This document shows positions 269 to 49,700 of a stretch of 64,000 bases of DNA, piece after piece. Source of the DNA: Lingula anatina (Eukaryota; Animalia; Brachiopoda); assembly GCA_051362555.1 (NCBI GenBank), contig CM120645.1, positions 14,756,001-14,820,000 on the forward strand, in the 5' to 3' direction. How positions within the stretch are numbered: position 1 is the stretch's first letter; the number at the start of each line of letters is the position of its first letter. The translations under genes were made by a program, and so were the position numbers. The notes beneath the pieces were generated by a model that did no database searches, was not told the DNA's origin, and worked only from the letters and a program-made list of their open reading frames with translations.

Positions 269-636
269 GACGTCATCCGTTACTATAGTGAAACGTAAAC
301 AAAAATAGGGAGTCTCGTTTGTTTACATTAAAAAAAATGTTTGTTTATTTTGTAAACATCCCCATTGTCCGGTATAGGTTTTCCATTGTTCAAATGATGT
401 AACATAACAAAAGAAAAAAGTGGAATTCTTTTCTCCCGTATAGTACGGATGTAACTACTCACACACACCTGTAGTGTGCCCACCACAAGCTCAGGAAAGT
501 TATTATTATTATTATTATTAATATTATTATTATTGCTACGTGGTGGGCTAACGCTCATTATATGCTTTTATAACAATAACAAAACAATTTTTGAGATCAA
601 TTTTCTATAAGGAAATATTTCCTTTATTTATTCCAG

Positions 637-1263
637 GAGCCATCTCATTCATAGGTACGCCATATTTTGCCCGAGTGTACCCAGGAGCGCCTGCGGGAAC
701 CCACGTAATCACCGTAACAGCAGTGCCATCTAGCGGCATCACAACCGGGCAACCGATACGCTACTATATTTCGAATAACGCTAACAAATATTTCTCTATA
801 GACCATACAAGTGGAAAAATCGAGGTGAAGAAATCATACTCTACTTCAAAGGGACAGCAGTTCATTTTCGACGTTATTGCCAGACAAGGATCCAAGATAG
901 GACAGACAAGAGTTTCTGTAGAGATATCAGAAGAGAATAAATACCCCCCAGTTTTTTCTCGTCCGTCTTACAACACTGTCGTATGGCGACGAAGTAGCGT
1001 CGGAACGACGATTCTGATCGTCAGTACGTCGGACAATGATACGGCGCCGTACAACCGACTCGTAAGGTATAGCGTCAACGCGACAAGCAGCGGGTCTTCA
1101 TATTTTTCGATAGACGCTAGAAGCGGAAAAGTTAATCTAAGGCAGCAGCTGCCGCAGGCACGAAGTGTGACACAAATAGAGGCCACTATAGTTGCCACAG
1201 ACCCAGGTGTGCCTGAAATAACAGCTTCTGCAACGCTGTCGGTCAATATTTCTTTAATATCAG
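637..1263 (+). CDS. Exon encoding two cadherin-like repeats of the adhesion GPCR
   Basis: ORF 591-1424 translation: [48 protein letters not shown]; boundaries ttccag|G and CAG|gtagg. Confidence 0.88.
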
Positions 1264-10200: not shown

Positions 10201-13200
10201 TAAGGCGCACCGATGATTAAAAATTGAAAATCTTTGAAGCAAAAAATGCAGTGATTTATTTTAATTAAAATCTGAAATTTGTTCAAAAAATACAGAATTA
10301 AAATTGGCCGATCGAGATAAAAAATGTATTTATTGGAAGAATAAAATGCATGAGACATGATACAAATTTATCAGCTTACTACTTATCTCGGATATTTTTT
10401 CTGTCAAACAGATTGCTAAGAACATGTTAACCACCATCAGTAACGTTATGGACGCAGACGAGGAGGTTTTGCACGAGAGCAACGACCAATCGCACGCTGC
10501 AGAAAGGTAAGCCATCTATTGTTACTTGTAGAGCTTCATGTAAGCCCCCCCCCCCCCACCCCACCCCCATTTGTGGTGGGCCTCTGCAAAGTGTGATACG
10601 AAGACGTGCTCGTAAAATGTCTTGGTTTGCCATTTTCACGTTAACGTACACGCCACAGGAAGGACAGTTTAAGGCTTCTCCCTTTAGACTGAAATCCATA
10701 TAAACAGCAGTATTTGTAAGTTGCTCATATACATCGTACAATGCTGTCAGTGAAATCCATTGTTGTAAACATCAATACTTTTTAAAAGTTTATGTTTATT
10801 CCCATTGCTTCAGATTGCTCCAAGTTCTCGAGCACTTTACAGAGAGCGTCAACCTTACCTCTGTAAGTAAAATACAGCTTGAGTCCAGCAACATTGCCGT
10901 AGAGGCCATGGAAGTCCCTCTTCCAAACAGACGGGGTCCAGAGAATTCTGAAGAAAAAAATACAACACGTGGTGGAGTCAAAACACAATGGGTATAGTAT
11001 AAAATGCATTTCTCTTCTTGCCTACGGTGCAGTCAAGCTGGTGTACATATACATGTATATAGGCCGTAGAAGATTTAATGTTTTTTTTTCCTAATTTGCC
11101 ATGAGTGTCGGTGGTCAGTAAGGTAAAGCGGTAAATCGCGTTTTAAATAAATGGTCGAGGTCGAGTTTTTTTTTTTTTTTTTTTTTTTTTTGACTTTTTA
11201 TTTTATTTTTTATTTATTTTTATTGAAGTATTTTGGACATTAATTCGCTCCCCTTCCCACTCGTCTTACGTTTGTGCGTGTAGCTTTCATTATTAGAGTA
11301 GCCTACATGTTTTTATTGTGACGTCGTTACTTTGAATTAAGAGAAATTGACTTTTTCCCCGCACGGAAAGTTGCTACTCAGTCACTGCATTCCTTCTTCA
11401 ATCGGTCATCATCCAGCCTCCTTATTTTTCTTTTCAAATCAGAAAAACACCAGAATGTTCCTTCCCACTGAGGTTTTTGAACAGTCCGCGTCCGAGGCTG
11501 AAAACGTCAACGCAACAACTACGCGGGTTTCGTTCGTCTACTACGCTAACAGCAAGTTCTTCATGGAACATAACCATTCAGTGGAGAAATACGGGTCCCT
11601 GGAGAACAGAGGGGTGGTGGCGGCCACTGTGAAGAATACACGCATTCTGAATCTCACGGAGCCAGTGGTTTTCACTCTTCCGAATGTGGAGGTATAAAGT
11701 TGTCATTTTCAGCGCGCTTTCAGTTTTACTGATAATATAAGATTGTTAGTAGGGCAATTAATGTTTGGAATTAAATTGATTCCTCGGGGGTAAGAACATG
11801 TTTATTTTATATCATATTCTATGACCCATCAAATGAGTAGTTTGGTGGGTCCTAGCCCCATTTGGTAAGAGTCGTTGTATAAATGGATTAAGAAGGGTTA
11901 TTTATTATGCAAGATCTATATATCGATCAATACAGAACGTAGAGGATTTCATTCATGATCTAACGTTAACCACTTATCGTTTCAGGTCGGTGCCCCTCAC
12001 ATATGTGCCTTTTGGAATGCCACAGGTATGGGGTGGTGTTCGAAGTTTACATTCTGAATTTATAGTCTCGGAATATGCTGAGAAAAATACCACATTGTCA
12101 AGTCAAGTCGTTTCACAATTTTAATCGACTAATCCTTTAGTAACCCCTATTTTTTTCTACAATCGATGTCACGCTTGTGACTTCCGGGTAAAGGCATTGC
12201 CAGTTTTATTTGTGCTGTTATATCACTTTATTTCACCATATGGGACAATACTACTTTAAAAACGATAAACCATACTCGCACTATGCCATCCTATTACTCA
12301 TGTGAAAAACAGCACTTACCGGTACTTAGATTTCCACTGCATCTTTTGTATTTCCATTGAATTTATTAGTTATGGGTGTTAACCAGAACTTGGACTGCAA
12401 ATAAAAAGTGCAATGCAATCTTTCAGCGAGAGTGTGGTCCACTGACGGCCTGGAGGTCAACTCGACGGACGAGAATTCCACCACGTGCTTTTCTCGCCAT
12501 CTGACCAACTTTGCTATCCTGCTGGTAAGTTATATTTATCAGCTTAAAGCCTATGATTATGAATTTAAATTGCAACCAACCATTTTTCTAAAGACAGCAG
12601 GCGGATGCGACTAATTGCCGCGAAATTCTCCTTTAGAATGGCTTTTGATTGTGCTATTGATGATTGTGCTTTGTATTTTTAATGGATGGGCCCTCAAAAG
12701 ATACCATGTAAAGTGTCATTACTTATAATCCGTAGGACCGCCCATTAGTGATAAAAACCTTGTAAGCGTGAAACTTGTTATAGACCGAGTTACTTACCTG
12801 AACGTAGATATGCTCTGTCTCATCATTGGTAATGTTATCGACGGCGGTTTTGTTATTATTTTCAACTTATGACAGTGTGAAGAGTTAGGTTTGAAGGGGG
12901 AATATTGAAAACTCGAGTAACTAACAAAAAATAAATCACAATTTACTTTTGAGAAAAATGACAAAGCGCTTGGTCTTGATATGCTTTCTGCGCATGCGCG
13001 ACATGCAATTTTTATTTTAATATATAATATTTTTTATTTATTACCTGACATATTGTTGATATATTGCTATCAAAATAATAAATCAATAAATGTTAACTGA
13101 AAACAATGTTCATTTGGTAAATATGTTCATTGATTGTATTTTTAAACCTTCGCAAATGCAAACCCATTCATGGATAGGTGGCCTTTCTTCAGCTATTGCG

Positions 13201-16200
13201 ATAGCTATTATATATAAGAATGTGCATTTGCAATTTACATTTTCGAACTTGACCTGGTAAGCGTAAATCTTAGCAAAGGCTGAGTCGCTTGCAGGTTAAT
13301 TTGTGTAGACCCCCCATTCAGGACCGGGGTTGACAAAATATAGATATGGAATCCTTCACCAACATGGCCTTCAAATGTAATTGGAATGGGGCGGTGAAAG
13401 GGGCATGTCACCCCTTACAACGATAATCGGGCTTAGTATGAATTTATTATACTCCAGATCACTATTTCCTTAGTAACAGAGCCTGGACTTTTTACAAACG
13501 ATGTTAATTAGTTTTTATATCTAACGGAGTGTGATGTTTTTTATCTCTGTCTCCCTCGGTCTTACCCCTAACAATACACGGTACTTTGTTACCAGTGACG
13601 GTTGAATTAGGCAGGTGAGCTACAATTTGCCCTTACCTTGCATGGAGGGGGTAATGTCCATTCATGGACATAATAAGAGACTCCTATTTAGGTCCAAGGT
13701 CCATTGCACTACATTTAATTACCCTTTCGCTAATAAAAGTGTGGAGAGTTGCATTTAAAGGAGGATTATCAGAAGAGTTTAAAAAATGAATTTAGATTCT
13801 GAAAAGTCCACTTCTAAAAAGGCCGAAAGTGTCATCCGATGCGTTCATGTCGTGCTTAAATTGTGCACGTATCAAGGTTGAAAATACCACATCATTCATA
13901 AGCTTATTCAATTATTTTTAAAATTAATAAACACTTGGAGATTAATTATCTATTCATATAATGACCAAACCACTATGTGCAAGATATACACAAGCGCTAA
14001 GAGGACAATACACTAACACTGTTAGATTGCTCATTGCCACACATTCTGCATTAAGCCACGGCTTATTTACTCTGTCTGATATATTACTATCAAAATAATA
14101 AATCAATAAATGTTAACTGAAAGCAATGTTCAATTGGTAAATATGTGTATTGATTGTATTTTTAAACCTTCGCAAATGCAAATCCAATCATGGATAGGTG
14201 GCCTTTCTTAAGCTATCGCGATAGCTATTATATATAAGAATGTGCAGGTACAATCTACATTTTCGAACTTGACCTGGTAAGCGTAAATCTTAGCAACGGC
14301 TGAGTCGCTTGCAGGTTAATTTATGTAGACCCCCATTCAGGACCGGGGTTGACAAAATTTAAAATATAAGATCCTTCACCAACATGGCCTTTAAATGTAA
14401 TTGGAATGGGGCGGTGAAAGGGGCATGTCACCTCTTACAACATTAATCGTGCTTAGTAAGAATTTCTTGTACTGTGGATCACTATTTCCGTAGTAACAGA
14501 GCCTGTGGTTAGTAATACTAATTATAATAATTAATTGAGCAACGTGTGCAGTTACCTTTTTACAAGTTGTAAATTGAATTTTACATAAATTTTAATAAGC
14601 TTAAATAAGTATAACTACTTTAGATCATTATAATACCAAAATACATATTATGTAACTACTTCAGACATATAGCTCACAACAGTAAGACACAATCTTATAA
14701 TATTGGACATAACTTACTGTCTAAACCTGGCCACTGCTGATGCACTTGCACGACACTGTGCTTTTCGTCTGTAATTACAGAGCAAAAAATCCTCGTCTTT
14801 TTTATTTTCTGTAGTTGACCTGATAAGGTCCAAATGACCCGTAAGTAATTTATTGGGGAGGGGAAGGGAAGGGAGGGGGGCAGCTAGGTAACAAAATCCA
14901 GGGTCCGCCTGGTACTAACATCATAGATTGGAAAAAATGTGCATTTTCTTTATTTCCCCTTTCTTTTGCCAGGATCCTACCCCCAGTGAAGCCATTCCAT
15001 TGCAGCATCAGATATCCCTGGCCCTCATTTCATATATTGGATGTGGGCTTTCTCTCTGCGGCCTGGTGCTAACTATTCTGACTTACGGACTGTTTAGGTA
15101 TTTATGCATTACATTATTTTCTGAAGTGTATTTTTATTAAATGTTGATGAACATATGTATTGTCTCTTTAATAACGCGCTGTTTACATCATAAAGTAATC
15201 ATCACACCCATCCGTGCTTTTTTGCAAGTACCTGAACCAGAGCTGCAAAAGAGGGTACAATGTAATGAAATAGTGATGACACAGATCCTATGTGCGTGCA
15301 AGCTGTATAATTGCTGCTGTTCAAAATTTGGTACAATTTGTATCTAAGAGTGATTCTAAATTCACGTCTAATGTACGTTGTTATCAAAATAGGTGTCTCC
15401 ATGGCGACAACTCGGGCAAAATCCTGATCAATTTATGCGCCTCCATGCTGCTGATGAATATAACTTTCGTGGCGGGCACTGCTAGATCAGTGTCAGGTAA
15501 GGGGATTTATTTTTGTGAATTTCAATGAAATAATGACATTTCCCTGATGCATAGGTAGCACTTTTTTGTTAGGCAGGTGAAAGATATAATGAAAAGACAG
15601 GGTGTGTTAAGTTGGCCACTGGGCGCTGTTTTAAAGTTGGACGATAATTCATTTTATCCGTCCGAGTTTGTAAGAATCTGAATTTGAAGAAACCGTGTGA
15701 GGCCTTTTTATTATTGTATTTGTAACTTCAGATGCCGAGGTCGTCTGCACAGTTGTTGCAGTGCTACTGCACTATTTCACCCTGACGACCCTGATGTGGA
15801 TGTTAGTGGAAGCAGTGCACATGTACCGGCTTCTGGTGAAGATATTTAGGACTTACGAGCCTCGATTTATGCTAAAGAGACTCCTGATCGCGTGGGGAAT
15901 CCCCCTGATAATTGTCGGAGTAACAGTCGGGATTAACGTGGACAACTATGGCGGAAGGGATGATCTGTGAGAAACCAATATTTATTTCAGTGTTTTCTTT
16001 ATAATTGATGTTGATCCTATTTTGTTTAAAATTTATCGAAGCTCCTTCTCACAATTGCAAAAGCAAAATATGGATTTTTAGTAATCTCGAATGTCTGTTT
16101 GGCTCTCTGTCTCTTATAAAGCACCACAGTACGTTTTAATGGTTATAATATTTTTGAAAGGAAAATGATTTATCAAGATGTATTTTATTTCTTTATTTTC

Positions 16201-16900
16201 TTTTTATAGGTGTCGACTAACCAGCGCCAACCCTTACGTCTACTATATAAGCTTTTTGGGACCCTCGTGTTTGATACTTATCTTCAACTCCGTCGTGTTT
16301 GTATTGGTGTCAAGGGTCATTCTGCGACCTCGGGTCAAAGGTCTTCAAGGAAAAAGGAGTCAAGAGCAGCCGAAGGTGTCCGCTGCGCAGGTCCGCGGCG
16401 CAATTTCCGTTATGGTGCTGCTGGGCATCACCTGGGTGTTCGGTGCATTCGCTGCAGGGGAAGCAAAAGTCGTCTTCGCTTACATCTTCTGCGTTGCGAA
16501 CTCTCTCCAGGGATTCTTAATTTTTCTGTTCAGATGCTTGCTACACCCTGAGGCTCGAAGCGCCTGGGTCCAGCTGGTGACCACGGGAACTTTCAAAAAG
16601 ACGCGATCTCGCGCTTCCTCGCGAGCAAGTTCGGGAGAGCACACTAACTCCCACAATAGTAATCATGACAACAGGAGGACCTTTAAAGAAACTTTTACAA
16701 CAAATAAAATTGTAAAAAACACCAACGTGTGGCACAAGGCCAGAAGGTTTTCCAGCGATTCGGACGAAAAAAATCTAAAACCTCTGAAATACCACGACAT
16801 TAATCTATCATATACATTTGAGGATAAATTCGACAATCCTTTGTTTAAAGCATTAAACAATAGTCCGTCTATGGCTGGTCCAGATGACACGAAACTTTGA
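637..16900 (+). CDS. Adhesion GPCR (cadherin-FN3-EGFx~39-HRM-GAIN/GPS-7TM), 5'-incomplete; 17 exons: 637-1263,1497-1790,2122-2715,3175-7131,7906-8142,8649-8783,9299-9492,9794-9934,10412-10506,10814-10991,11443-11691,11986-12025,12427-12524,14973-15097,15393-15496,15732-15966,16210-16900
   Basis: All exons have AG/GT boundaries and the phases join in frame. Cadherin motifs ([19 protein letters not shown]), FN3 (W..P....GY.V.Y), EGF repeats, HRM (C...FVWPKS...C..G.....RRC......W.....EQC), GPS (CAFW...WSTDG...HLTNFAILL), secretin-like 7TM ([42 protein letters not shown]), C-terminus DDTKL. The donor at 10991 is weak, so a small exon may be missing there. Confidence 0.92.
3175..7131 (+). CDS. 3957-nt single exon encoding about 31 tandem EGF-like repeats with many N-x-S/T sequons
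   Basis: ORF 3048-7169; recurrent C..NPC.N.G.C......Y.C.C..G..G..CE pattern, counted by hand; phase 1-1 boundaries. Confidence 0.95.
11986..12524 (+). CDS. GPS motif split over two exons (11986-12025, 12427-12524), autoproteolysis site HL|T and Stachel TNFAILL
   Basis: [46 protein letters not shown]. Confidence 0.9.
12740..12800 (+). pseudogene. Decayed copy of the Sm-site small RNA family (no Sm site or 3' hairpin)
   Basis: gtaagcgtgaaacttgttatagaccgagttacttac resembles the family hairpin; a ggccctc element lies 73 bp upstream of GTAAGC (77-78 bp in intact copies A and H). Confidence 0.45.
13144..13218 (+). promoter_or_regulatory. Putative snRNA-type promoter of copy A (octamer-like GCAAATGCAAA, GGCCYT element, TATA-like); equivalent modules precede copies B-I
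   Basis: The GCAA(A/T)T motif starts at 13152, 14172, 18435, 19083, 20031, 21304, 22242, 23051 and 24180, always 100-107 bp before the donor-like site. Confidence 0.65.
13234..13331 (+). ncRNA. Sm-site small RNA candidate, copy A (in GPCR intron)
   Basis: attttcgaacttgacctg|GTAAGC at 13257; hairpin ACCTG.TAAGCG/CGCTTGCAGGT with inner CTTAGC/GCTGAG; Sm-like AATTTGTGTAG 13298-13308; 3' hairpin ACCCC/GGGGT. Confidence 0.72.
14254..14350 (+). ncRNA. Sm-site small RNA candidate, copy B (in GPCR intron)
   Basis: Near-identical to copy A at offset 1020; donor-like GTAAGC at 14277; AATTTATGTAG 14318-14328. Confidence 0.72.
14973..16900 (+). CDS. 7TM (family B2/adhesion) domain and cytoplasmic tail, 4 exons
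   Basis: Seven hydrophobic segments with adhesion-GPCR signature motifs; stop TGA ends at 16900. Confidence 0.93.
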
Positions 16901-18514
16901 ATTCCTGTGTTTTTCGACAGAATTTCTACCCAAAGACAATTATTAGTTAATATACCTGGGCATCAGTATACCGGTACCGTTTGACAGTTGGAAGCAGTTT
17001 TATGTCAGAGGCGAAAGTCACATAAGAAATATAAGGACATAACACGGGCGGTTAGGTTTTTAGGAATTTATAGTTATCTGAATAAACGTGTTAGTTCACA
17101 CCAACATGTAAGATATGTATTCTGAATCTCAAGTGAAGCAATATCATAGCAACTTTGTATATACATGTACTTCTCGTAAATGCCAAAATGTTAAGTAACT
17201 ACTATTAATTACTATTTATTATTGTTGGTGCCATCATTACTTTTTAATGCGAAGTGATCAATACATATGTATATGTTGATTAAACTGTCGTCTTAGTGCT
17301 AGTTACGATGTATCATTACACAGGAAAAAAAGACGTTCAAGAAATCCAGTTGAGCATTTTTCTAATCCAAATACACTACTCAGTATATTTGTACATACAC
17401 TGTATGATATGTTGGGTATCTATATTGACTTAATTAACGTACTGGGCACGTGTGCTGCGTAATAAGGTGCATTTAAATGATTTTTTGAACAAGACACTCT
17501 CTACCAGTCGTGAGGTCGTGTAGCAGTTACAAATTGTACAGATTTCTATACAATTTTGTAACAGGTAGAAAACCTCTGTTAGAGAGTCAGTAGTCACTCA
17601 GTCAGAGACCTCCGACAAGGCTGTGCTTGGAAATAACCTTGAATAATAATGCGATTACATGAGATAAGTTTTCAACACGGGGTAGCAGGCACCAATCTGA
17701 TAGCACACTGTACAAATAAAGCCCACCGTCTATCCCAGAGCAATCGAGCAAGGGCAAATAATACATAAATGGATGAAATTGTAAGCCAATAGATCAAAAG
17801 CAAATCCAAAACGACCCAATCAAACAGAAAGAATGTTTATTTTCTATAAGCAATGTTTCAGAATTTGTTAAGAGGCATAGACTGTATTTATATTTTTAAT
17901 TTAAGAATTTGAATAAACGTTTAAAACTGAGCCGAAATGTTTTTCTGTGTTGTTTGAAAGAGGGGGGAGTGTATTTGGGTATGTCTCACGCTTCTTCTAA
18001 TACTAATACCACTGTGGAGCTGTATAATAATCAATCAGTGTACTTCACCAGAAGATAGCTTCGGCTTGAAACTCAAAGGAGCGATTATTGTAATAAAGAT
18101 CTGTAAAGGAATGTGATATTTTTGTCTCCGTCTTCCTTGTTTGGTACAGTTTAGGGGAAATGACCATACTCTTATTTAATTTATACTCTTTGCTAATGAC
18201 TTTTTAAAGAGCTGGGGAAAAAACCAAAGTAAATGATCCTTTCCTGAGAAAGGAACAGAATGTGTTTGCGCATGCGTCAAATTACAATTCATAGTAATTC
18301 ATATTTGCAAATATTTCTGTAAAAATTGTGATTATGACATTTTTTTAAAATATCATAATAATTTATTAATATATTGCAATTGTAATTATATGTATTGGCT
18401 AAGAATTCTTTTTTAAGTATATTTGAATTGCTATGCAAATATATATCTAAGCACGAAGTAAAAGCCCTTCATAACATAACGCAGATTATACATATAAGCT
18501 AACCAAGTACTACA

Positions 18515-18599
18515 AACTCTCTTAATGCATGTTCCTGGCACGGACCCGCCTAACCGTGCACAAAAGATTATTTTGTGGGTCTCTATTAACCCCAGGGAC
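18515..18599 (+). ncRNA. Divergent Sm-site small RNA candidate, copy C
   Basis: Same upstream motifs (ATGCAAAT 18433, gcccttc, TATA-like) and spacing; cctg|GCACGG/CCGTGC hairpin 18538-18559; ATTTTGTGG 18570-18578; 3' hairpin GTCTCT/AGGGAC. Confidence 0.55.
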
Positions 18600-19164
18600 T
18601 GACATTGACGCATATTGACACCATAATATAACTGGAGTAGTAAACGTTGTTAAGCCGCACAACTATTCCCAAAGCAAATGGGTCTCATTGTATAGGCGTT
18701 TGTCACCTTTGTACGCCATTTATACGACCGAATCTTGTATAACTGCGAGCGACGTTACTGCGTCCACTGTTCCCTCTAACAGGGCCACACACATTGATAT
18801 TTCACTAGATATTAACAGATGTGTCCCTGGTTTAATAGATAGCTAGTCTCTGGCTCTGGCTAAATGGCTCGCCTTAGCAAAAATGTTCACAATAATAACT
18901 GCGGCCGTGGTAGAGGGCATGTCCCCTGTGCAACCCTACTATATCATTTATATGTTTATTCAATCACTTCTAAAGTTATTAAAATTAGCTCAGTTAAATA
19001 TCAAAATTATAAGTTAAAATTTAGAAAAAGTAAATTGCACAAACTGATTAGAAATTATGTTTCAGTATATTTTCATAGCTTTGCAAATGCAAATTTAATC
19101 ATCGATAGGATAATAATGATAATAAGATATCAATGTTGGTAAAAGTATCAAGATGCCTATATGT

Positions 19165-19255
19165 CGGTGCTGTTATTCAAACGTAAGCGTAAATCTTGGC
19201 AATAGGCCGAGTGGCTTACGGTAATTTATGGGCGGCCCCGGTGGTCAATGGGGCC
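19165..19255 (+). ncRNA. Sm-site small RNA candidate, copy D
   Basis: CGTAAGC/GCTTACG outer stem, CTTGGC/GCCGAG inner stem, AATTTATGG 19223-19231, GGCCCC/GGGGCC 3' hairpin. Confidence 0.72.
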
Positions 19256-20114
19256 ACAGTTAAAGTAAATAAAAAGCAAGATATACATAAGATGTCAGCT
19301 GCAACCAATGAGATATTTTAATTTATGGCACTTTACGAAGAGTCAATGTGTAAAAGAGGTTTTGGGTTACAGCTCGTGGGGCAAAAGTGTGGTTAAAAGT
19401 GAATGGTCGTTTAAAACTGGTCTGATAACGATTTAAAAACAATTGAGGAAGTTTTAATAAATATCTATAACGGAATGTGATCTATTCATCATAAACATGC
19501 ATGGTTAAACATAATATCTGGCACTGGCTAGATGGCTTGCCTCAGCAAAAATGTCCACAATAATGACTGCTGACCTGGTAGAGGGCACGTCCACTGTGCG
19601 TTCCCTGTGCAACCCTCAGCACAAATTGCGACGTTCGAGCTCGTAACCGTAAACTAATGATTCGTCGGTTGGGTTTCCATTGCTTTGCTCGGAAGGAGAA
19701 GTGTCCATATACTTCATATATTAAAACTTTCTAGTAAAGACAGTGTAAGGAGTTAGGGTACAAGGGGGGGATTGCAAAAGAAGTTCAAGAAGAAATGAAT
19801 GAAAATGAAATCAACTTTTGGGAAAGACAGGAAATTCCAGTTTAGGCAGTCTTATAAGATAACTAAAATATGCTTTACGCATATTGGCCATGATAAGACA
19901 TTGAACCTTTTGCATTTTATTTATTTTTTGAAAGCATTTTGGTCAATATCAAATTCATATGTCAATATAAAATAACAAGAAGCTTTGCTTATATTGTCTG
20001 CAATGCATTAACTGCAATTTTTGAAGCTTTGCAATTGTTAATATAATCATTTAACGTACGGCCCTCGACAAAGTATCGCGGCTGCTATAATTTGAACAAC
20101 GTCAGCTGTTTGGA

Positions 20115-20209
20115 CAGATTTGCCAATATATAGACTGGCGAGTGTAAACCTTAGCATAGGCTAAGTGGCTTGCTAGAGAATTTATGGCAGCCTCTTTCTC
20201 TGCAGGGGC
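20115..20209 (+). ncRNA. Sm-site small RNA candidate, copy E
   Basis: CTGGCGAGT/GCTTGCTAG outer stem, CTTAGC/GCTAAG inner stem, AATTTATGG 20179-20187, GCCTCT/AGGGGC 3' hairpin. Confidence 0.7.
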
Positions 20210-21386
20210 ATGCAAGTTACTTAAAAAGGAATGCGTAAATTTTCATGTTGTGCATGAGAAGGTTTGATTTGTGCGTGTCCCTGTATGACAGCGTGTTTGC
20301 GAAGTTTAGGTTACTGCATGTGAGCTAGGATATTTCGGATCCTAGATGTGAGAAATCCGTAAATTCCAATTGTAAGACAAACTAACCGTGCCCAGGGGGA
20401 GTAAAAAGTATAAAGAAAAATGCAGTGAGCAGTCTCAATACTTACACGAAGAAGTGCGTATTCATTTGAACAGTGAATCGAACACGGCCAAGTACTCAGG
20501 CATTAGGGCTATTTATATATTCAATGAGTATTTACACGTAGAATCATCGTTTTATATGACATACTGGGTAGAATCATTATTTAAAATAAATCTTGAGTTG
20601 ATAACAAATATTTCATTTATTTACACTTTTATACTTATGACAGAGTTAGGTTTTAATGAGTGATTTTTAAATACAATTTTTTTTTTTTAAAAAAAGCACG
20701 AGTGAAAAAACTGAAATGGAATTAAAATCTACCTCTGAGTAGGTAGAAAATGTTATCCTGTGTGGTTTTAATATGCTTTCAACGCATGCGCCAAAATTTG
20801 CACATGACGTCTTTTTTTTATAACAGCTACGGATTTTTGAGGAAAATAAAAAGGAGAGGATTTTTTGCTCTGTTTTATGGTTATATTTCAACTTTTGGGT
20901 CTTTGGAGTCACTTCCTATTCTGTGTTAATACAATGGGCGTTAACCCATTGTTCTAATTCACAACCTTGTTTGGGTAAACACATTTTACCAGGGATGAAT
21001 AACTCCTTCATATTTTTCAACCTAATAGGTAAAATAATTGATTCCTATTGCGTAATATGGTGTCATTTCCTTTAACCATAAAAGGTGGGGAGAAAAAGCG
21101 ATAGACCTTAGACGGGCCCAAGGAAAGTTCTCTAAATTATCGTACGGTACCGTACATGTTGTACTTTCGAGAAAGGTAAAGATACCATTCTATCAGTCTT
21201 GATAATCATCGATTTTTTAATATCTAAATTATAAAGTAATATATTTTAACTATAATCTGCATTTGTTAAGCGTATAATTACATACAAAAATTTTTAAAGC
21301 TTTGCAAATGCAAATCTATTCATTACATGAACGGCCCTTCATAAAATGGTGCGAGTGCTAAAATATACACCATGTTTCCGGAGGTT

Positions 21387-21481
21387 GAACGGTTTTCTAA
21401 TTTGAGCTGGCAAGCGTAAAACTTGGCTTAGACCAAGTGGTTTGCTAGTGAATTTATGGGAGTCCCATGCTCAACTGGGAC
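21387..21481 (+). ncRNA. Sm-site small RNA candidate, copy F
   Basis: CTGGCAAGC/GTTTGCTAG outer stem, ACTTGG/CCAAGT inner stem, AATTTATGG 21451-21459, GTCCCA/TGGGAC 3' hairpin. Confidence 0.72.
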
Positions 21482-22323
21482 AAAATAATAAAAAATCAAT
21501 TAGTTCTAACCTGTAACAGAGTTAGTTTTATGTATGCAGTATGGCATAATACTAAAACACGAGTTAAAAACTATAAAACATATTGATTTTGAAATTAATT
21601 ATATTGAAACGTCTACTTGTGTGATTGCAGAAGATGTCACCCCGTGTGCTCTACCTTTAGTTTCAACGCAAGCGCCTAAATTTAAACATGATATTTTTTT
21701 TTATTTGTAATATAAAACCCTGTGGCTATTGTGCAAGGTAGCGGAAACGTTCAAATTAGCTCACGAGGTAAGGAGCTCGGGTATCTTGCTCCATTTTTCT
21801 TTTAATGTATCGACTTTAAAAAATGTCCGGGAATTATGCCTGATCATGATGTCCTGGCTACGATAATAGCATTGGTTGGCTTTTCCCCAACGTTTTGTAC
21901 ATATTCCTATCAATATAAACAAGCGCTAAGAGGACAATGAAGCAGCACTGTTATATTGCTCAATGCCACACATTCTGCATTAAGCCACGGCTTATTTACC
22001 CTGTCGACATAGTGCCTTGTTTGCATGACCTCCGTAATTGTAATGGCGAGAAAGGTAGAAATATCATTTCGCTATAGTATTGATAGGCACTGTGCGCATG
22101 CGCCACGATGAAAGAAACTTTTTTATCTTTTATCAAATAAAGATAAACATATTTTTAATATCCGAATTATAAAATAATACATTTCAACCAAGGGCTGCGT
22201 TTGTAAAGCATACAGTTATCTGCGTGAATTTGTAAACCTTCGCAAATGCATATCTATTCATAGAATGACCACACTATATAACATAGCGCGATATCTAATA
22301 TATGAACCATTTTTCTAACACTT

Positions 22324-22418
22324 CGGCGGTTTTCCAATTTAAGCTGGCAAGCGTAAAACTTGGCCATGGCTAAGTGGTTTGCTAGTGAATTTATGGGAGC
22401 CCCATGCACAACTGGGGC
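22324..22418 (+). ncRNA. Sm-site small RNA candidate, copy G
   Basis: CTGGCAAGC/GTTTGCTAG outer stem, ACTTGGC/GCTAAGT inner stem, AATTTATGG 22388-22396, GCCCCA/TGGGGC 3' hairpin. Confidence 0.72.
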
Positions 22419-23133
22419 AGAAGATATGAATGTTAGAACAGAAATCATGACAACAAAAGCAGTCTATTCCTCAATTATGTTATGGACCATTATGAAATTC
22501 ATGTTCTTATATTAAGGAGGTGTAAACCCATGTTATTGTTTGCGATGTACTAGATTGTTTTTTCTCCAAACCCAAAGCTTGACTGCGCTATGCTAAAGTA
22601 TAACTATTGAAATAAGTCTTAAGGTGTAAGTATATACACGCACCCTGTACTCATTCAGTGAACCGAACTCAGCTATCATTAGTGCTTCTGCACTCAGGCT
22701 ATTTATAGAGTCATTCAGCTGGTATAATACGTAATAAAATAAAGCTTTAAGATACGTCTTGCGTTTTCAGCAAACATTATAATTCATTCATTTACTTTAA
22801 GGGGATAATTGAAATGACAAAAAAAAAAAAAAAAAAAAAAACGATTTACTCATGAGAAAAACAGAAAATGTCACCCCACTCTTCTTCCATTGCATTCTCC
22901 GCGATTACTATATTCTTACTGTGTTATAAATTGAACTTAAAATACATATGAAAATATTTTTTTAATTTTCAAAATGATTGGATAATAAATCTCAATGCTA
23001 CACATTGATAGTTTTGTTTCTAATTGTATTACTTATATTTTTAAAGCTTTGCAAATGAAAATATAATTACGGATAGATGGCCCTTAGGGATATCACGGGT
23101 TGTTGTATAAATAATACGATATCGTTGTCAAAC

Positions 23134-23225
23134 TGCTGATTTTCGAACTTGACCTGGTAAACGTAAATCTTAGCAAAGGCTGAGTAGTTTACAGGTTAAT
23201 TTATGGAACCCCCAGACCATCGGGG
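23134..23225 (+). ncRNA. Sm-site small RNA candidate, copy H
   Basis: tgctgattttcgaacttgacctg|GTAAAC at 23157; ACCTG.TAAAC/GTTTACAGGT stem; AATTTATGG 23198-23206; CCCC/GGGG 3' hairpin. Confidence 0.72.
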
Positions 23226-23503
23226 CTAATATGTAAAAATACCCATATCCAAGCTTTGCTCTGTTCAGATTAACGGTGCGTTAGAGTAGTATGTTAGTGA
23301 TTACTTGACCAAAACACTTACCTAATCTTGGGACACTTCCTACTGTATTTTCTTGGTTTTCAGTTTCGTTTACAGTTTATTATAACCTGGATGACGTAAT
23401 CCATGTTTTCCATACTAAAAATTGAGCGAATTCGCAGTATTCGATTTATGTTTTTACATAAAATATCGCACTGATGCTTTTCCTGATGATGTGCGTGGTT
23501 TAC

Positions 23504-23536
<33 letters not shown>

Positions 23537-24262
23537 TCGGTGTGTATGGTTTACGTATGTGTGTTTTCCTGATGTTGTGCGTGGTTTACGTGTATGTGTG
23601 TTTGTGTGTGTTTTTGTGTGAGCGCACGTATTGTGTAAAATAAGTGAAGTTCCAAGCTACGACAATGTTTTCTAAAATTAAATAAAAGTTTTAAAGAGCA
23701 AACCGTAAAATTCGCTAACTACAATGTATAACGACATTAGACCAGATTGGTGATTGGCCTGGAATGGCTACCCTGAGTGTCAAAGCAAGGAAAAAGCTAG
23801 CTTGTTAAATATTATACCTTGTGATGGAGTCGCTTTTACTGGCTCTGACGAACAGCGACAATCCTACAGTTGGTATAATACGTAATAAAATAAAGCTTTA
23901 AGATACGTCTTGCGTTTTCAGTAAACATTATAATTCATTCATTTACCTAAAGGGAATAATTGAAATGACAAAAAAAACGATAGACTCATGAGAAAAACAG
24001 AAAATGTTACCCCACTTTTCTTCCATAACATTCTCCGCGATTACTACACTGTCTTATAAATTGAACTTAAAATACATATGACAATAATTTTTAATTTTCA
24101 AAATGATAAGATAATAGATCTTAATGCTACACATTGATAGTTTTGTTTCTAATTGTATTACTTATATTTTTAAAGCTTTGCAAATGAAAATATAATTACG
24201 GATAGATGGCCCTTAGGGATATCACGGCTTGTTATATAAATAAGACAATATCATATTTGAGG

Positions 24263-24357
24263 TGCTGATTTTCGAACTTAACCTGGTAAGCGTAAATCTT
24301 AGCAAAGGCTGAGTAGTTTACAGGTTAATTTGTGGAGACCCCCTGACCATCGGGGTT
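24263..24357 (+). ncRNA. Sm-site small RNA candidate, copy I
   Basis: tgctgattttcgaacttaacctg|GTAAGC at 24286; AATTTGTGG 24327-24335 (identical to the U1 Sm site); ACCCC/GGGGT 3' hairpin. Confidence 0.72.
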
Positions 24358-25878
24358 AATATGTAAAGTATGATGTTATCTATAAGAAATACCCTTATCC
24401 TAGCTTTGTTCTGTTCAGAATAACGGTACGTTAGAGTAGTATGTTAGTGATTACTTGACCAAAACACTTACCTAATCTTGGGACACTTCCTACTGTATGC
24501 ATTTTCTTGGTTTTCAGTTTCGTTTACAGTTTATTATAACCTGGATGACGTAATCCATGTTTTTCATACTTAAAATTGAGCGAATTCACAGTATTCGATT
24601 TATGTTTTTACATAAAATATCGCACTGATGCTTTTCCTGATGATGATTTTCCTGATGATGTGCGTGGTTTACGTGTGAGTGTGTGTGTCGGTGTGTGTGG
24701 TTTACGTATGTGTGTTTTCCTGATGTTGTACGTGGTTTACGTGTACGTGTGTTTGTGTGTGCGCGCACGTATTGTGTAAAATAAGTGAAGTTCCAAGCTA
24801 CAACAATGTTTTCTAAAATAAAATAAAAGTTTTAAAGAGCAAACCGTAAAATTCGCTAACTACAATGTATAACGACATTAGACCAGATTGGTGTTTGGCC
24901 AGGAATGGCTGAAGTTATAATGAAATATTTTACCACATCATGTCTTCTCTTTACAGTATCGAGTAGTTAAAGATGCATACAAAGTCAATTTTTTGTCACA
25001 AAAACCAACCAAATGCCAGCATATAGTTTCAAGTAGTATAACTAAGAGAATCACCAAAAGGCATTGTTTAATTTTACCCGAAAATGATGTTTGAACAGAT
25101 TTTTCTGCAGGCATTCTAAGCTGTATCTCAATGGGGCAGGAAAGTAGGTCACAGAAGTAGGTTAAATTTACAACCAAAAATTTAAAGAAAGGAGCAGTCT
25201 AAAGGTCTTTTATGGCTGATCGAGTGATCTATTCAGTTTATCCCTTGGCATGTCAAATTAATTTGAGTCATATAAGAATCTAGTAGAAGTGGTTTTCATG
25301 TGTTACTGGGAATCCAAGCTCCACCGATGCTCGGTTCGTATGTACCTTTAACATCTTATGTTGGATCTAAAGGTTTCACGAAAAAAAAATGACTCATTCA
25401 TTTTGTACGTTTTTATTCTCTGATAATAGGAAAATATAAGGAAATCATACTATTAATTACAGTGTTATACCCGATATATCTATCTGGAAGAATACTAGCT
25501 CCTATTAGTGATTATAACCATCTATATGAATACTTTCAATTTTTACCACACTACTAACAACACTTTTCAACACCACTTACGGCACCAAAACGCACCGACA
25601 ACTTATGGCCATGAAAGTATTCTACCGCCATTTTAAAAACTGTTTCAGGAAAGTTAACGTTAAAGTCATACAGGCAATACGACATGATGTAGACACGTAA
25701 TTTACAAGTTCTTTGCTGTATACAGTACACAAGGTTTACTTCCTATAAACTTTCTTATGGCCTTAACCATTTGATTTGCCTCTCATACTATTTAAATGGA
25801 CGTCTGGACTGGATATGATACATCACAGCTGTAACGAATGAAGAAAGTTGCGTCACTTCTGAGAAAATCTGATGGAAG

Positions 25879-28645: not shown

Positions 28646-29520
28646 CTGAAGTAAAAAAAAAAACGATATCAGTTATTTATCTGATAATGGATAAAAATTA
28701 GTATTTATGAAAAAAGAGGGACATCTTAGGCTACATGCACCTTTTGTTTTTTGTGCTTCAGAAGGGACTAGATGTCTAGCGCGAAAACGTATCCACAAGC
28801 ATCCATTTGGATACATGCGTGCACGTGGATTTTGATCATATATTTCAAACACAGTGTACATTTCAATTCCAACTTATTCTTTTTTTTTATATTTGAATGA
28901 TATTTTTCCTCCCTTTTAATAATTTTAGTTTCGTTTGGCTAGATGACGAAGTATGTTGTCCATGTATATGTGTGTGCGTGCGTACGGGCGTCCATGCGTT
29001 CGTATCTGTGTGTGTGTGGGGGGGGGGGGGTACGCTAATAAGCTGCCTACCATTTCAAAAACGCGCAATGCCATCCTCATATACAGCCACATTGAATGGC
29101 ACGGCGGCGGGGAAACCGTTGGACCATGCTACCTGTCTCGGTGATATGCATGACGTGATGTTTACGAACACAATATTTTTGGACAAACTTACAGTCAGGC
29201 CGCGGTTTGAAAGCCTTCTTTCAAGGTGAATTTTGATCCGGGTTAAATGTACAAAGAAATGAAAAACAAAGTTTTATGCCGTAATATTTACCGCATGTGC
29301 ACTGGCGCGTCACCGCGGTAAACCGTTAAATGAGGTGACAAGTGACAGGATTCGTATTGTATTGAGTCATCTGGTTTGCTGTGATACGATTCGTATATAG
29401 AAAACTTATGGCTGGAATGAGTAACATCCCAAGTAAAAGATGGAAAGTACTGATGATTTTGGAAGTCATAAGTCATAAATAGAAACACTAGAAGGGCATA
29501 AAATATATCATTTCGCCAGG

Positions 29521-29524
<4 letters not shown>

Positions 29525-29585
<61 letters not shown>
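29525..29585. repeat. Compound (TC)n(AC)n microsatellite
   Basis: Seen directly. Confidence 0.95.
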
Positions 29586-29588
<3 letters not shown>

Positions 29589-43700: not shown

Positions 43701-46700
43701 CTAATCTTTTAATAGTCTCTCCGCCTTTCACACGCCTGCCCACGTGTTGTCCCAATGGAGCCGAGATTTAATGACTGTACCCCCGCAGGGACGACGCATG
43801 GGGAGGCGTGTGACAGGCAGGGAGACTATTAAAAGAGTTTTCCTTTCATGTACATCTGCCATATTTAGGCCGTGGCTTTGTAGAGCCATGGCTCAACTCT
43901 ATGTGAATGTGGCCTATGTCTCACAAATACCATGATGGAATCCTTCCATGACCATATGTTCACAAAATTCGGGCAACTGGTCCAAAGAGCATTTCATCAT
44001 CAAGAGTCATACATGTATATATAGAGAGCATGTACTTATCAACGAACTCTTGGAGCTTCAGCAAAACCCCCAAAAAGGATACCAGGGCTACATGTATCTA
44101 CTGTTACAGTAAGTTTAGTATTTTGGAAAAAGCTAGACCAAACAACAGCAATTTGTGTTTGAACAGTCATGTCCTTCACTGCCCATCGTCTAGTATGATA
44201 CTGACCTGTTTTAAATGGAATGAATACAGCAGGAGTGCTGACACCAGCTGATGGAAGACTGGGTTCCCTTCCCTGAAGATTGACAAATGACATATTTTAG
44301 CAGTAGAATTATAATTTTATCACACCTGTCTTCCCATAATGCAACAGCGATTGTTGATGTAGCAATCATAAATGTCTTCCCATAATACAACAGCAATTAT
44401 TGATGTAACAATCATCAATATCTTCCCATAATACAACAGCAATTGTTGATGTAACAATCATCAATATCTTCCCATAATACAACAGCAATTGTTGATGTAA
44501 CAATCATCAATATCTTCCCATAAAACAACAACAATTGTTGATGTAACAATCATCAATGTCTTCCCATAATACAACAGCAATTGTTGATGTAACAATCATC
44601 AATATCTTCCCATAATACAACAGCAATTGTTGATGTAACAATCATCAATATCTTCCCATAAAACAACAACAATTGTTGATGTAACAATCATCAATATCTT
44701 CTCATAATACAACACCAATTGTTGATGTAACAATCATCAATGTCTTCCCATAATACAACGGCAATTGTTGATGTAACAATCATCAATATCTTCCCATAAT
44801 ACAACAGCAATTGTTGATGTAACAATCATCAATATCTTCCCATAAAACAACAACAATTGTTGATGTAACAATCATCCAGTCTGTCCGCAGATCTTGCATA
44901 TCAATGCGTAAGCGGTGATCATTACAAAAACACCTACGCGCTTGCACAAAATAGTCCGCGACGTGTGTTTCGCGCCATGTTTTCCAAAATCCAAAGTTGT
45001 TATATAAATCCATGAAGCTCTGTGAATAACTCATTATTCAGCTTGAAACTTTCAAAAAATAATATTTAGAACTTGATGTAAACGCACAATGTAAAATGAA
45101 CATTTCAATTTCCACGAAAGCCTTGTATCAGTTGTCTACAAAGAGCACACGCATTTTTCTCAAGCGGATCGTGTAATTTTGTACCCTAAAATGAAATGAT
45201 TGTAGAAAAAATGGACAAACTTACTTTATTGATATTATAACGATTTATGCAACTATATATGCTGGAATTGAACCAAAAAGAATGAAAAATTTGTACAACC
45301 GTCCTTTTTTGTGAAATCCCTATTTTAGTTCGAAGTATGTAGGTCAGTCGAAACTGGGACTGTCACGCTGCACTGAGGAAGTGACTCGAAAGCGATTTTC
45401 TCGGCAAATCTTGCATTTCGGTTTAAAAAATTGAATGTTCAGCTTCTCAAGTGTATATTTATAGTATACAGTGTGTCATTGTCATAGTGAGAGTTGTTAT
45501 GGAAAATAATACGTGAAAAAAACGCCATCGGTGCTGCAGATCGACCATATCGCTGCCATAACATGGTTTTAGAATGGAAAAAATCTGCCGTTTGCCTTTC
45601 AAGTTACATAGCTTTGGGTTTGCAGACTTAAAGGTGAGTCTTTTTTTTTTTTTTTTTTTTTTTTTGCATTCACTAAGTTTCATATAAGCGCCGAAATGTA
45701 TAGAAATGATTTTGGAGTAACCTCCCTTCGCATAGTTCAGATGCACTTGTTGGGGTCCGCCATATAGATAAACGTCCCAATAAAATATTCGCCCCGATAG
45801 ATACGTCTCTATACATACACGTCTCAATAGATTTACGTCTCGTTAAATTTACGTTCCGATAGATCCACCAACAGATTCCTATAAACCCACGTATCTTTAG
45901 ATCCAGGTACCGCTAGATCCATCTATCTGACATCGTAATCGGCTAAAAGGCCCATATCAACTTGCGTTGTGAAATTTAGAACACATTTTTATGTTCTTTT
46001 TTGTTTTGTTTTGTTTAGAACACATTTACATGTAAATTCAGAACACTTTTTACGTGTTCGAATGTTGCATTTTGAGAACGCTTTAAACAGTGTTCTGACG
46101 CTAGAACAGTAATTAAGCGTTGTGAAATATAGAACACACTTTTGTTCTTTTTATGTTCTTTCACTGAGTATTGTTTGAAAACGATCTAGTAGAATAATAT
46201 ATTGCTGACTGCGTACTGCCGTTTTAAAGAAGTGCATTTTATGTACTGAGTAGTATACCAACCATTTCGAGCAATAGTGTACCTGTAATGGATCTATCGG
46301 TATTTGGATCTAAAAATACGTGGATCTATAGGTATGCGGATTTAAAGGACGTGGGTTTATGAGGACGTCATATCTATAGGAACGCAAATATATAGGACAG
46401 CAGAAAAAAATCGGATCTATCGGTATTTAAATCTAAAAAGACGTTTTTTCCGTTTTTCCTTTATGTATCTATCGGTAACGGGAGTATAGGGACGTGTAAT
46501 ATTTTGGGACTAAATTTTATCCGTACGTACCCCACTTGTTGACGTTCAGTACCAGTGAAATGTTATATTTTGTTGCAAAGTTATAGTTTTACTTTGTTTA
46601 CATACAATGTGTAGGCCTACTAGGATACCTTTATTCGTTCTATTTCCTTTACATACATGTATGATTTTATCATTATTGTACCACCAGCGTTAGCGCTGGC

Positions 46701-49700
46701 GGTACACATGGTTTCGGTCCCGTCCGGATCGTTCCGCCGGCTCCGCCGGCTCCGTTGGCTCCGCCGGCTCCGCCGGACGGCTACCGTTACCGCTTCTCCT
46801 CCTAGACGGTAAGGGCCCCCGTACCCATCTCATGGATTTAGGTCACCTATAATCTCAACTCGTTCCACGTAAAATTTGGGCTTTGTCGGTATTGGGGTCT
46901 GGGTGTGGCACTCATTGCAATGCACCCTTGTCTAAAAATGGCAAAATTAAATGCTAATTATCTACCCTACGGAAGGAGTTATGGGAAAAATTTCTATAGA
47001 CGGCTTTCCAAAAGTCATATGTGTTGATTTCAAATATACCCTTGGATTTGACCTTTGACCTTTACTTCAAGGTCAAATGGGCCAAAATTTTCAAAAAAAT
47101 GAAATTTTTTACGAAAAAAATTTTTTTTGCCCTGTTTTTCAGACACCACACAGACTTAACCAATAATATTATTGGAAGGTGTTACCCTTCAGGTCATCTT
47201 TCATCTCCATGAATTTGGGGTCAATCGGTGCATTTTCACGGGAGTAGCGGCCATAAGATACCGAAACTGAAAACTGTCTCTAATTCGGGAACCGTTAATG
47301 CTAGAGACCCATTCTTTTTTGCATTTTGTAGAGCATGTAAAGCCCAACACTGGAGGTGGTCTCCGTTTTTTTGTATTCCATACGGTTTTCGAGTTACGCT
47401 GTATCAAAAAGTACATATTGGTGGTAAAAGCAAAATGTGCAGTACGGTAATGGATAATAAATTTTGAACTCTGGAAAAATAAAACATAAGGCTTGGCAAA
47501 GCAGACAACTTGTGTTCAAAAATGACATTATTTCATCAAATTTGAACTTCTGAAACTTCAGAGCACCTCCTATTTCAAGAATTTTGACCAAAATGACATT
47601 TTCTTTATTTTAATTAATTTTTTCTGTACGAAATTTAAGGCACATTATGGTAACTCCAAAATTATAACATTTAGTCCCTTATATCTCCAAAACTGGCAGA
47701 GATAGGTCCATAGTTACTATTGAACTTGAATAGGAAGTCATATACTGGCAATCTTACTATGACCTTGAAAGTGACCTTTGACCTACTTTTCACCATGAAC
47801 TGAACTTTGCAAATTTTTCTTCCCTTTTATCTCCAAAACTGGCAGAGATAGGTCCATAGTTACTATTGAAGTTGAATAGGAAGTCATATACTGGCAATCT
47901 TACTATGACCTTGAAAGTGACCTTTGACCTACTTTTCACCATGAACTGAACTTTGCAAATTTTTCTTCCCTTTTATCTCCAAAACTGGCAGAGATAGGTC
48001 CATAGTTACTATTGAACTTGAATAGGAAGTCATATACTGGCAATCTAAATGTGACCTTAAAATTGACCTTTGACCTACTTTTCACCATAAACTGAACTTT
48101 GCAAAATTTGCTTCCCTTTTATCTCCAAAACTGGCAGAGATAGGTCCATAGTTACTATTGAACTTGAATAGGAAGTCATATACTGGCAATCTAAATGTGA
48201 CCTTAAAATTGACCTTTGACCTACTTTACACCATGAACTGAATTTTGCAAATTTTGCTTTCCTTTTATCTCCAAAACTGGCTGAGATAGGTCCGTAGTTA
48301 CTATTGAACTTGAATAGGAAGTCATATACTGGCAATCTAAATGTGACCTCAAAATTGACCTTTGACCTACTTTTCACCCAACTGAACTTTGCAAATTTTG
48401 CTTCCCTTTTATCTCCAAAACTGGCAGAGATAGGTCCATAGTTACTATTGAACTTGAATAGGAAGTCATATACTGGCAATCTAAATGTGACCTTGAAATT
48501 GACCTTTGACCTACTTTTCACCATGAACTGAATTTTGCAAATTTTGCTTCCCTTTTATCTCCAAAACTGGCTGAGATAGGTCCATAGTTACTATTGAACT
48601 TGAATAGGAAGTCATATACTGGCAATCTAAATGTGACCTTGAAATTGACCTTTGACCTACTTTTCACCATGAACTGAACTTTGCAAATTTTGCTTTCCTT
48701 TTATCTCCAAAACTGGCAGAGATAGGTCCATAGTTACTATTGAACTTGAAAAGGAAGTCATATACTGGCAATCTAAATGTGACCTTAAAATTGACCTTTG
48801 ACCTACTTTACACCATAAACTGAATTTTGCAAATTTTGCTTTCCTTTTATCTCCAAAACTGGCTGAGATAGGTCGGTAGTTACTATTGAACTTGAATAGG
48901 AAGTCATATACTGGCATTATAAATGTGACATTAAAATTGACCTTTGTCCTACTTTTCACCATAAACTGAACTTTGCAAATTTTGCTTCCCTTTTATCTCC
49001 AAAACTGGCAGAGATAGGTCCATAGTTACTATTGAACTTGAAAAGGAAGTCATATACTGGCAATCTAAATGTGACCTTAAAATTGACCTTTGACCTACTT
49101 TACACCATAAACTGAATTTTGCAAATTTTGCTTTCCTTTTATCTCCAAAACTGGCTGAGATAGGTCGGTAGTTACTATTGAACTTGAATAGGAAGTCATA
49201 TACTGGTATTATAAATGTGACATTAAAATTGACCTTTGTCCTACTTTTCACCATAAACTGAACTTTGCAAATTTTGCTTCCCTTTTATCTCCAAAACTGG
49301 CAGAGATAGGTCCATAGTTACTCTTGAACTTGAATAGGAAGTCATATACTGGCAATTTACTGTGACCTTGAAATTGACCCTTGACCTACCTTACGAAGAA
49401 CTTAAATTTGATTGTACCATATATATTTTTTGCAATAGTTTAAAAATTCTTGTTGATTGCATTTTTACAGCTTGTCAAGCACAAAACTGGTGGCTATGTC
49501 CCTTATTTTGTGTATGTGGGGGTCTATACGAATGCGCTTGCTCCAGCTGGTGGTACAATATTCGGAGGCGGTATCGCCTCTCTGATCCTCTAGTATTATA
49601 TTTATTTTTAACAGATTCCCGAATTTCATATCAGCTGACAATAAGGGAAGAGGTGTTCTAGTCAAGACCAGGGAAAATTTATTTCCATACGATTGTGTGT

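Follow-up and report, generated by a model that had tools for sequence, protein, structure and literature searches.

Small nuclear RNA-like genes in Lingula anatina with 5' segments that match transposon-borne repeat boxes

In a 64,000-nt window of the genome of the brachiopod Lingula anatina (assembly GCA_051362555.1, contig CM120645.1, positions 14,756,001 to 14,820,000, forward strand), eight intact-looking copies of a short unit, together with an odd member (copy C) and a decayed tenth copy (J), appear from their sequence to be a real, undescribed family of small nuclear RNA (snRNA)-like genes. Five or six of the 5' segments are identical to repeat boxes, and we tentatively favor the possibility that the units encode Sm-class snRNAs whose 5' segments would guide them, by antisense pairing, to boxes in repeats borne by Helentron-type transposons. 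A preliminary description had taken the splice-donor-like hexamer that follows the 5' segments as a possible sign of spliced-leader RNAs, and the repeat core as a relic of the leader. The members, with positions counted from the first base of the window, are as follows.

12757..12836 (+): copy J, decayed tenth copy, with GTAAGC at 12762, a broken helix, no Sm-like site and a promoter remnant
13239..13334 (+): copy A, with 5' box at 13239-13256, helix at 13257-13292, Sm-like site AATTTGTGT at 13298-13306 and a 3' hairpin; in an intron of an adhesion G protein-coupled receptor (GPCR) gene
14259..14353 (+): copy B, duplicate of A (92%), with helix from 14277 and Sm-like site at 14318
18516..18600 (+): copy C, odd member, with upstream boxes as in the others, a 6-bp helix from 18538, ATTTTGTGG at 18570 and a hairpin
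19161..19258 (+): copy D, with a shortened leader, a C in place -1 that pairs with G, its helix beginning at 19183 and Sm-like site at 19223
20116..20214 (+): copy E, a GC variant whose 5' segment shows weak complementarity to a 146-bp repeat
21391..21484 (+): copy F, a GC variant whose 5' segment is the complement of a diverged monomer near 55313
22328..22421 (+): copy G, a GC variant and paralogue of F, for which the window offers no significant target
23134..23230 (+): copy H, whose 5' segment equals the box of a 161-bp repeat over 23 nt and an oyster CL9 box over 21 nt
24263..24360 (+): copy I, duplicate of H, with Sm site AATTTGTGG at 24327 equal to the U1 nonamer

Copies J, A, and B lie inside the GPCR-gene intron after 12524, and C to I lie downstream at ~1 kb spacing. 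In the clear copies, the 5' segment is followed by a helix in two parts whose internal loop, GTAAA, is invariant, then by an Sm-like word and a 3' hairpin. The word, AATTT[AG]TG, stands at +41/+42 in all eight, i.e., 40-41 nt 3' of the donor-like word, a spacing inside the 20-60 nt window used by SLIDR. The preliminary description is supported in that the units look like genes of Sm-class small RNAs in which a short 5' segment comes first. The site is placed single-stranded before the 3' hairpin in 8/8 copies and is buried in the unconstrained folds of some. Measured against the human U1 Sm nonamer, AAUUUGUGG, whose position 6 is bound unlike the others (PMC4383343), the word is identical in I, differs at the last base in A, and has an A at position 6 in six copies. 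An octamer-like box 112-119 nt 5' of the helix, present in all eight clear copies, would represent an snRNA-type promoter; a GGCCCT-like word lies near -77 in six of the eight, a TA-rich stretch near -45, and a T4 run follows within 40 nt in one copy only.

13140..13163 (+): octamer-like box of copy A; its equivalents start at 14160, 19071, 20019, 21292, 22230, 23039 and 24168

The likely 5' end of the RNA can be approached through the paralogue pairs, which become alike 18-23 nt before the helix. Copies H and I differ at 7 of the 13 positions directly 5' of the box (23121-23133 and 24250-24262), the most diverged window of their duplication, versus 5.8% over 1,016 aligned columns; over the corresponding 13 bases A and B differ at three and F and G at seven. 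We infer that the RNA starts ~18-23 nt before the helix and is ~100-110 nt long.

The helix itself is an RNA helix under selection. When its 12 pairs were scored in eight copies, 95 of 96 cells were paired, 13 of them as G-U, with a single true mismatch; three of the 12 pairs have changed on both sides, and RNAalifold recovered the same helices. Covariation exceeded that of 497/500 shuffles, and since related sequences can beat shuffles, more weight falls on the G-U bias and on slid controls of the helix, which were only 21-45% paired. The tolerance of G-U rather than A-C marks the plus strand as the RNA. Folding z-scores ranged from -1.5 to -4.0 for nine copies and that of copy J was 0.45. 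A covariance model built on the eight clear copies recovers them at 68-96 bits, as it must by construction, and also finds J (29.6 bits, E 7e-5); it misses C, and the remaining three of its 12 matches have E of 0.26 or worse. At positions 12792-12800, where the 3' helix strand belongs, J carries ACTTACCTG, matching the U1 5' end of PMC4383343, which is probably chance decay. Rfam gave no match at gathering threshold over the whole window, and three weak, irrelevant ones at E up to 10 over 13000-24600. A likeness of the internal loop to U5 found no support in Rfam; a metagenome scan with the helix pattern returned two matches that lacked an Sm-like site after the helix and were judged to be chance; and a hairpin-rich segment 3' of A and B, no more stable than shuffles (z 0.40 and 0.51), was dropped as an RNA domain.

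The donor-like hexamers and their positions proved to be as first described, the poor G|GCACGG of copy C starting at 18538, and so did their pairing to a downstream strand, which holds in 48 of 48 cells (six pairs, eight copies); the partner in F and G is GTTTGC, a form absent from the original list. GT follows the 5' segment in five of the eight copies and GC in three, and GTAAGC, found in A, B, D, I, and J, is probably the ancestral form. As independent evidence of a donor the GC variants are not supported, since the partner base changes with them and pairing is kept: position +2 is U-A in three copies, U-G in two and C-G in three, and position +5 is G-C, G-U or A-U. The other exceptions, a paired C replacing the G at -1 in D and an A at +5 in H, also keep the pairing. 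Because every change in the hexamer follows pairing, GC adds no evidence for a donor. Nor is the hexamer more conserved than its neighbors, as +7 to +11, +13 to +15, +17 and +18 are invariant and +2, +3, +5 and +6 vary. In folds that assumed a 22-nt leader and kept the Sm site unpaired, the predicted probability of donor pairing is 0.88-1.00 downstream and 0.00-0.11 upstream; lengthening the leader to 37 nt makes E ambiguous (0.31 upstream versus 0.27 downstream). GGTAAG occurs at 23, and G-G[TC][AG]A[AG] at 203, of 128,000 positions, so the donor-like word is unusual, yet the paralogous copies count as one event. Real donors of the host gene include CTG|GT and AAG|GTAAGC. The 5' segments end in CTG or AAC; exceptions to the rule that spliced-leader exons end in WWG exist, and we give the mismatch little weight. 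The rule is that stated in a review (PMC3795323).

The 5' segments can be related to tandem repeats in the window, of which the following concern us here.

58156..58975 (-): 161-bp tandem array, 5.1 copies, with a hairpin and microsatellite at 58984-59075; HINE-like in its minus-strand reading; predicted target
56596-56883 and 58027-58147: further 161-bp monomers
55277..55341 (-): diverged monomer of the 161-bp family (nhmmer E 0.006); predicted target of F
46677..49557 (+): HINE-like element with 12-bp inverted ends (46677, 49546), a microsatellite, a 146-bp array and a 3' palindrome; possible target of E

Identity to the 161-bp repeat runs up to the junction with the helix over 23/23 bases in H, 18/18 in A and B, and 22/23 in I, each above all 30 shuffles, and the segment of F matches the diverged monomer (55313-55338) up to the same point. 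For D, E, G, and C, identity to the 161-bp repeat was not above shuffles. The earlier claim that the repeat match ends exactly at this junction is borne out for A, B, H, I and, with the diverged monomer, F. If the 5' segments are guides, the match would stop there because the junction is the border between guide and scaffold. The 161-bp and 146-bp arrays share the layout described for Helentron-associated elements, i.e., inverted ends, a microsatellite, and an array of 140-180-bp units (PMC7492417, PMC4067079), with both ends located only for the 146-bp element. Since the 161-bp array sits between exon-like segments with AG/GT borders on the minus strand, a pre-mRNA there would carry the target.

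The box extends beyond Lingula. CL9 arrays of the oyster Crassostrea gigas (PMC7492417, supplement 2) carry TGCTGATTTTCGAACTTGACC, the first 21 of the 23 matching bases of H, and that supplement contains 236 occurrences of a 15-mer of the box and 202 of its complement. After the box the oyster reads AA versus TG in Lingula, and three bases later GTATTA is shared, by eye, among the matches listed. Because the oyster repeats carry the box and the likeness runs past the junction, the box appears to be an old or horizontally shared repeat motif, not the relic of a Lingula leader as had been proposed. In published paper texts the motif turned up in unrelated occurrences only, and in the supplement of PMC8268682 not at all. 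Within the 146-bp monomer (47675-49389) stands TGACCTTTGACCT, and in its minus-strand reading the 161-bp box is reminiscent of a pair of neighboring half-sites; each of the two has the look of a nuclear-receptor direct repeat.

To assess pairing, 5' segments were tested against six, and then 16, chosen repeat strands, all within the window. Duplex energies with the 161-bp monomer were -39.6 (H), -33.2 (I), -27.5 (A and B), and -21.1 kcal/mol (D), each equaled by 0/60 shuffles; F beat 59/60, C, E, and G were not above shuffles, and the opposite strand of the monomer gave no significant pairing. The best target of F is the diverged monomer at 55277-55341 (-27.2; 0/60 shuffles, also after best-of-16 correction), with which it forms ~20 contiguous pairs including two G-U, and with which A and H pair poorly. 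The best of 16 for D is a 356-bp repeat (-21.4, 0/60), level with its 161-bp score. In both the 161-bp and the 146-bp element, the strand that pairs is the one that runs left to right in the element itself. When the RNA was folded, predicted binding was -28.7 for H, -24.2 for I, -17.6 for F, and -15.6 for A; G kept within -29 to -10, and E was weak (-6.5). In the co-fold of A, pairing with the target reaches as far as the junction, where the "donor" helix takes over. The target starts with CAGGTCAAGT, one inserted base from a perfect U1 site.

These features suggest a possible course of events. Transcription of snRNA type by RNA polymerase II would start ~18-23 nt before the helix, an Sm ring would assemble at the U1-type site, and the free 5' end would pair with the element-sense strand in repeat transcripts, and the "donor" helix would stack on the duplex of guide and target, much as helix H in U1 lies next to the end that pairs. 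Most speculatively, the bound particle might mask or mark the repeat in nascent RNA. The larger claim, that a diversified family of guide small nuclear ribonucleoproteins (snRNPs) is programmed against repeat boxes of rolling-circle transposons and amounts to an Sm-based transposon-recognition system, is conceivable and rather doubtful.

Expression was surveyed in four of nine same-species RNA-seq runs (polyA/standard libraries; 41,357,674 records) aligned to 13000-24500, where the shortest aligned stretch is ~32 nt and exons of 18-23 nt are invisible. The introns of the host gene show the expected splicing in X4, X5, and X7. In X1, ~223, 599, 561, and 253 letters fall in the bins of A, B, D, and G and none in host exon bins; all of these reads have the orientation that corresponds to sense in X4 and X5. 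The four X1 reads on B span ~150 nt, longer than the predicted RNA; the bin of D is also read in X4 and X7, maybe through repeats, and X1 reads may derive from copies elsewhere. This handful of fragments is a weak sign of independent transcription. The bin of F has traces of opposite-direction reads. No leader-tagged reads were found on the H, I, and E junctions in the four runs, where leaders below ~32 nt are undetectable; none of the 23 loose ends listed lies at a junction, and zero depth excludes loose ends at E, H, and I. The absence of reads at H, I, and E, given the ~32-nt detection floor, disfavors exons of at least 32 nt. Short dispersed repeats at 13663-13699, 18788-18917, and 23768-23838 draw partial RNA reads from other loci.

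Several results weigh against guide snRNAs. The bins of C, E, H, and I had a depth of 0 in all four runs. Neither G (10/60 shuffles) nor C (24/60) has a significant target among the 16 strands, which represent this window alone, and the pairing of E with the 146-bp monomer is marginal (-18.3; 4/600 shuffles with a target picked by eye, 4/60 as best of 16). Folded D barely binds the 161-bp box (-1.4), and the last 3-7 guide bases are predicted to pair within the RNA. The covariation shuffle ignores the relatedness of the copies, and the structure was derived from the same sequences; the RNA 5' end and Sm assembly are likewise read from sequence. Lastly, a guide model leaves unexplained the strong donor word at the start of the helix, and the ancestral G|GTAAG at this boundary favors a spliced leader, for which it is the best argument.

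In that alternative, which we consider unlikely, the units are spliced-leader RNAs with GT or GC donors and 18-23-nt exons that were taken over from the repeat box, so that the direction first proposed is reversed. GTAAGC is shared by five copies, GGTAAG is rare, and like donors are used in the host gene; moreover, the Sm-like site lies within the 20-60 nt of SLIDR (PMC7986045), the exon length fits 22-25 nt (PMC3795323), and spliced-leader families with many variants exist (PMC7986045). However, the donor is predicted to pair downstream and not with the leader; GC in three of the eight copies, C at -1 in D and A at +5 in H each leave the pairing intact; the Sm-like word is of U1 type and not the SLIDR default AT{4,6}G; H, I, and E leaders have no reads, which counts against exons of at least 32 nt; a spliced-leader exon would have no reason to track several repeat variants; and our literature search found no report of spliced-leader trans-splicing for Lingula or brachiopods. 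The boldest form of the transposon-recognition claim, in which the guide RNA, once docked on a transcript that carries the repeat, would be trans-spliced through its donor to the next acceptor, is highly improbable. A somewhat better prospect than spliced leaders, still not a likely one, is a structured Sm-class RNA like LU or SmY whose box does not guide by pairing but is bound by a protein, as a DNA or RNA element common to the repeats, for example a nuclear-receptor-like direct repeat. A helix, Sm site and hairpin alone are the layout described for Drosophila LU (PMC4053861), and a protein that binds both could equally account for the likeness of box and repeats in different phyla. However, conservation among paralogues starts sharply 18-23 nt before the helix, with the TA-rich box ~45 nt before it, which fits the box as the first bases of the RNA, and F tracks one monomer variant with two wobble-compatible differences. 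Improbable, finally, is that the copies are decaying snRNA-derived pseudogenes or mobile-element DNA hairpins that acquired boxes from abundant repeats and have no present function. Copy J is decayed, reads are few and the region is repeat-rich; against this, the tolerance of G-U over A-C is specific to the plus-strand RNA, and A and H share 18/18 box bases in units only ~72-76% alike. Paired subterminal inverted repeats such as mark HINE or Helentron ends were found around none of the eight copies, as exact 12-nt distant inverted ends (mismatches disallowed) within 2 kb.

Among known RNAs, the nearest kinds are LU, U1, and U7. U1, including an engineered minimal form in which the junction is replaced by a short element and which still binds its target, has in common with the family a free 5' pairing end, a helix, an Sm site of AAUUUGUGG type, and a 3' hairpin (PMC4383343), and the leaders of A, B, H, and I end like the first 11 nt of U1 plus one extra base. 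Unlike U1, the family has no four-way junction with SL1-SL3 and no U1-70K or U1A loops, and its 5' ends are variable and match repeats; the Rfam U1 model was not matched even at E 10. U7 is an Sm-class RNA whose 5' end guides it by pairing to a target RNA; it lacks a helix separating the guide from the Sm site, and its target is histone mRNA. The Rfam U7 model was unmatched. Drosophila snRNA:LU is likewise lineage-restricted and of Sm class, with its own promoter, stem-loops around the Sm site, covarying pairs, and a possible intron seat; however, it is single-copy and its internal conserved single strand is proposed to pair with U6 (PMC4053861), whereas here there are ten paralogues with variable, repeat-matching 5' ends. 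In spliced-leader RNAs, the donor typically pairs with the exon in stem-loop I; here hardly any such pairing is predicted at a 22-nt leader, and covariation backs the downstream partner. The short 5' segment, the donor-like word, the distance to a stem-loop-flanked Sm-like site (+41/+42 in 8/8, within 20-60 nt), and the multiple variants recall these RNAs (PMC7986045, PMC3795323, PMC9399869); unlike theirs, the family's donor is locked to a downstream strand and is GC in 3/8, and its exon would equal an oyster repeat box. Oyster Cg_HINE CL9 has the same 21-nt box and the same element layout as the two Lingula arrays, but its repeats correspond to the predicted targets and not to RNA genes, and the available portions of PMC7492417 mention no matching small RNA. 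A literature search, with most subscription papers outside it, found no description of the family or of Sm RNAs matching Helitron repeats; the main text of the Lingula genome paper contains none of "trans-splic", "snRNA" and "operon", and a chaetognath paper names Lingula only in its references.

The remainder of the window provides the setting. The adhesion GPCR gene (plus strand, 576-16897, exons placed by tblastn) has a last exon 100% identical to a protein labelled Lingula anatina; its region (552-16900) includes cadherin and fibronectin III domains and a 4-kb EGF-repeat exon at 3176-7132, which residues 540-927 of database isoform P0001 match nowhere above 85%. A membrane-protein gene at 25879-31100 (-) encodes a Cys-rich domain, a Thr-rich stalk, a hydrophobic segment, and a tail in which Tyr motifs recur, and by eye its predicted product looks like a lectin/mucin-type signaling receptor. 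Two 46-bp tandem arrays with similar flanks, at 44329-44876 (12 copies) and 52099-53915 (40 copies), are possibly the ends of another DNA transposon.

Few animal Sm-class RNAs are known outside the spliceosomal set. If the guide interpretation is true, 5' ends that follow the variants of a transposon repeat would be a new use of snRNPs and would make testable why short Helentron-borne satellite boxes are conserved across phyla. If the units are instead spliced-leader RNAs, trans-splicing would occur in a phylum for which our search found none reported, and its exon would have arisen from a transposon repeat. Sm-based transposon recognition, if true, would also explain the identity of the box between oyster and brachiopod.

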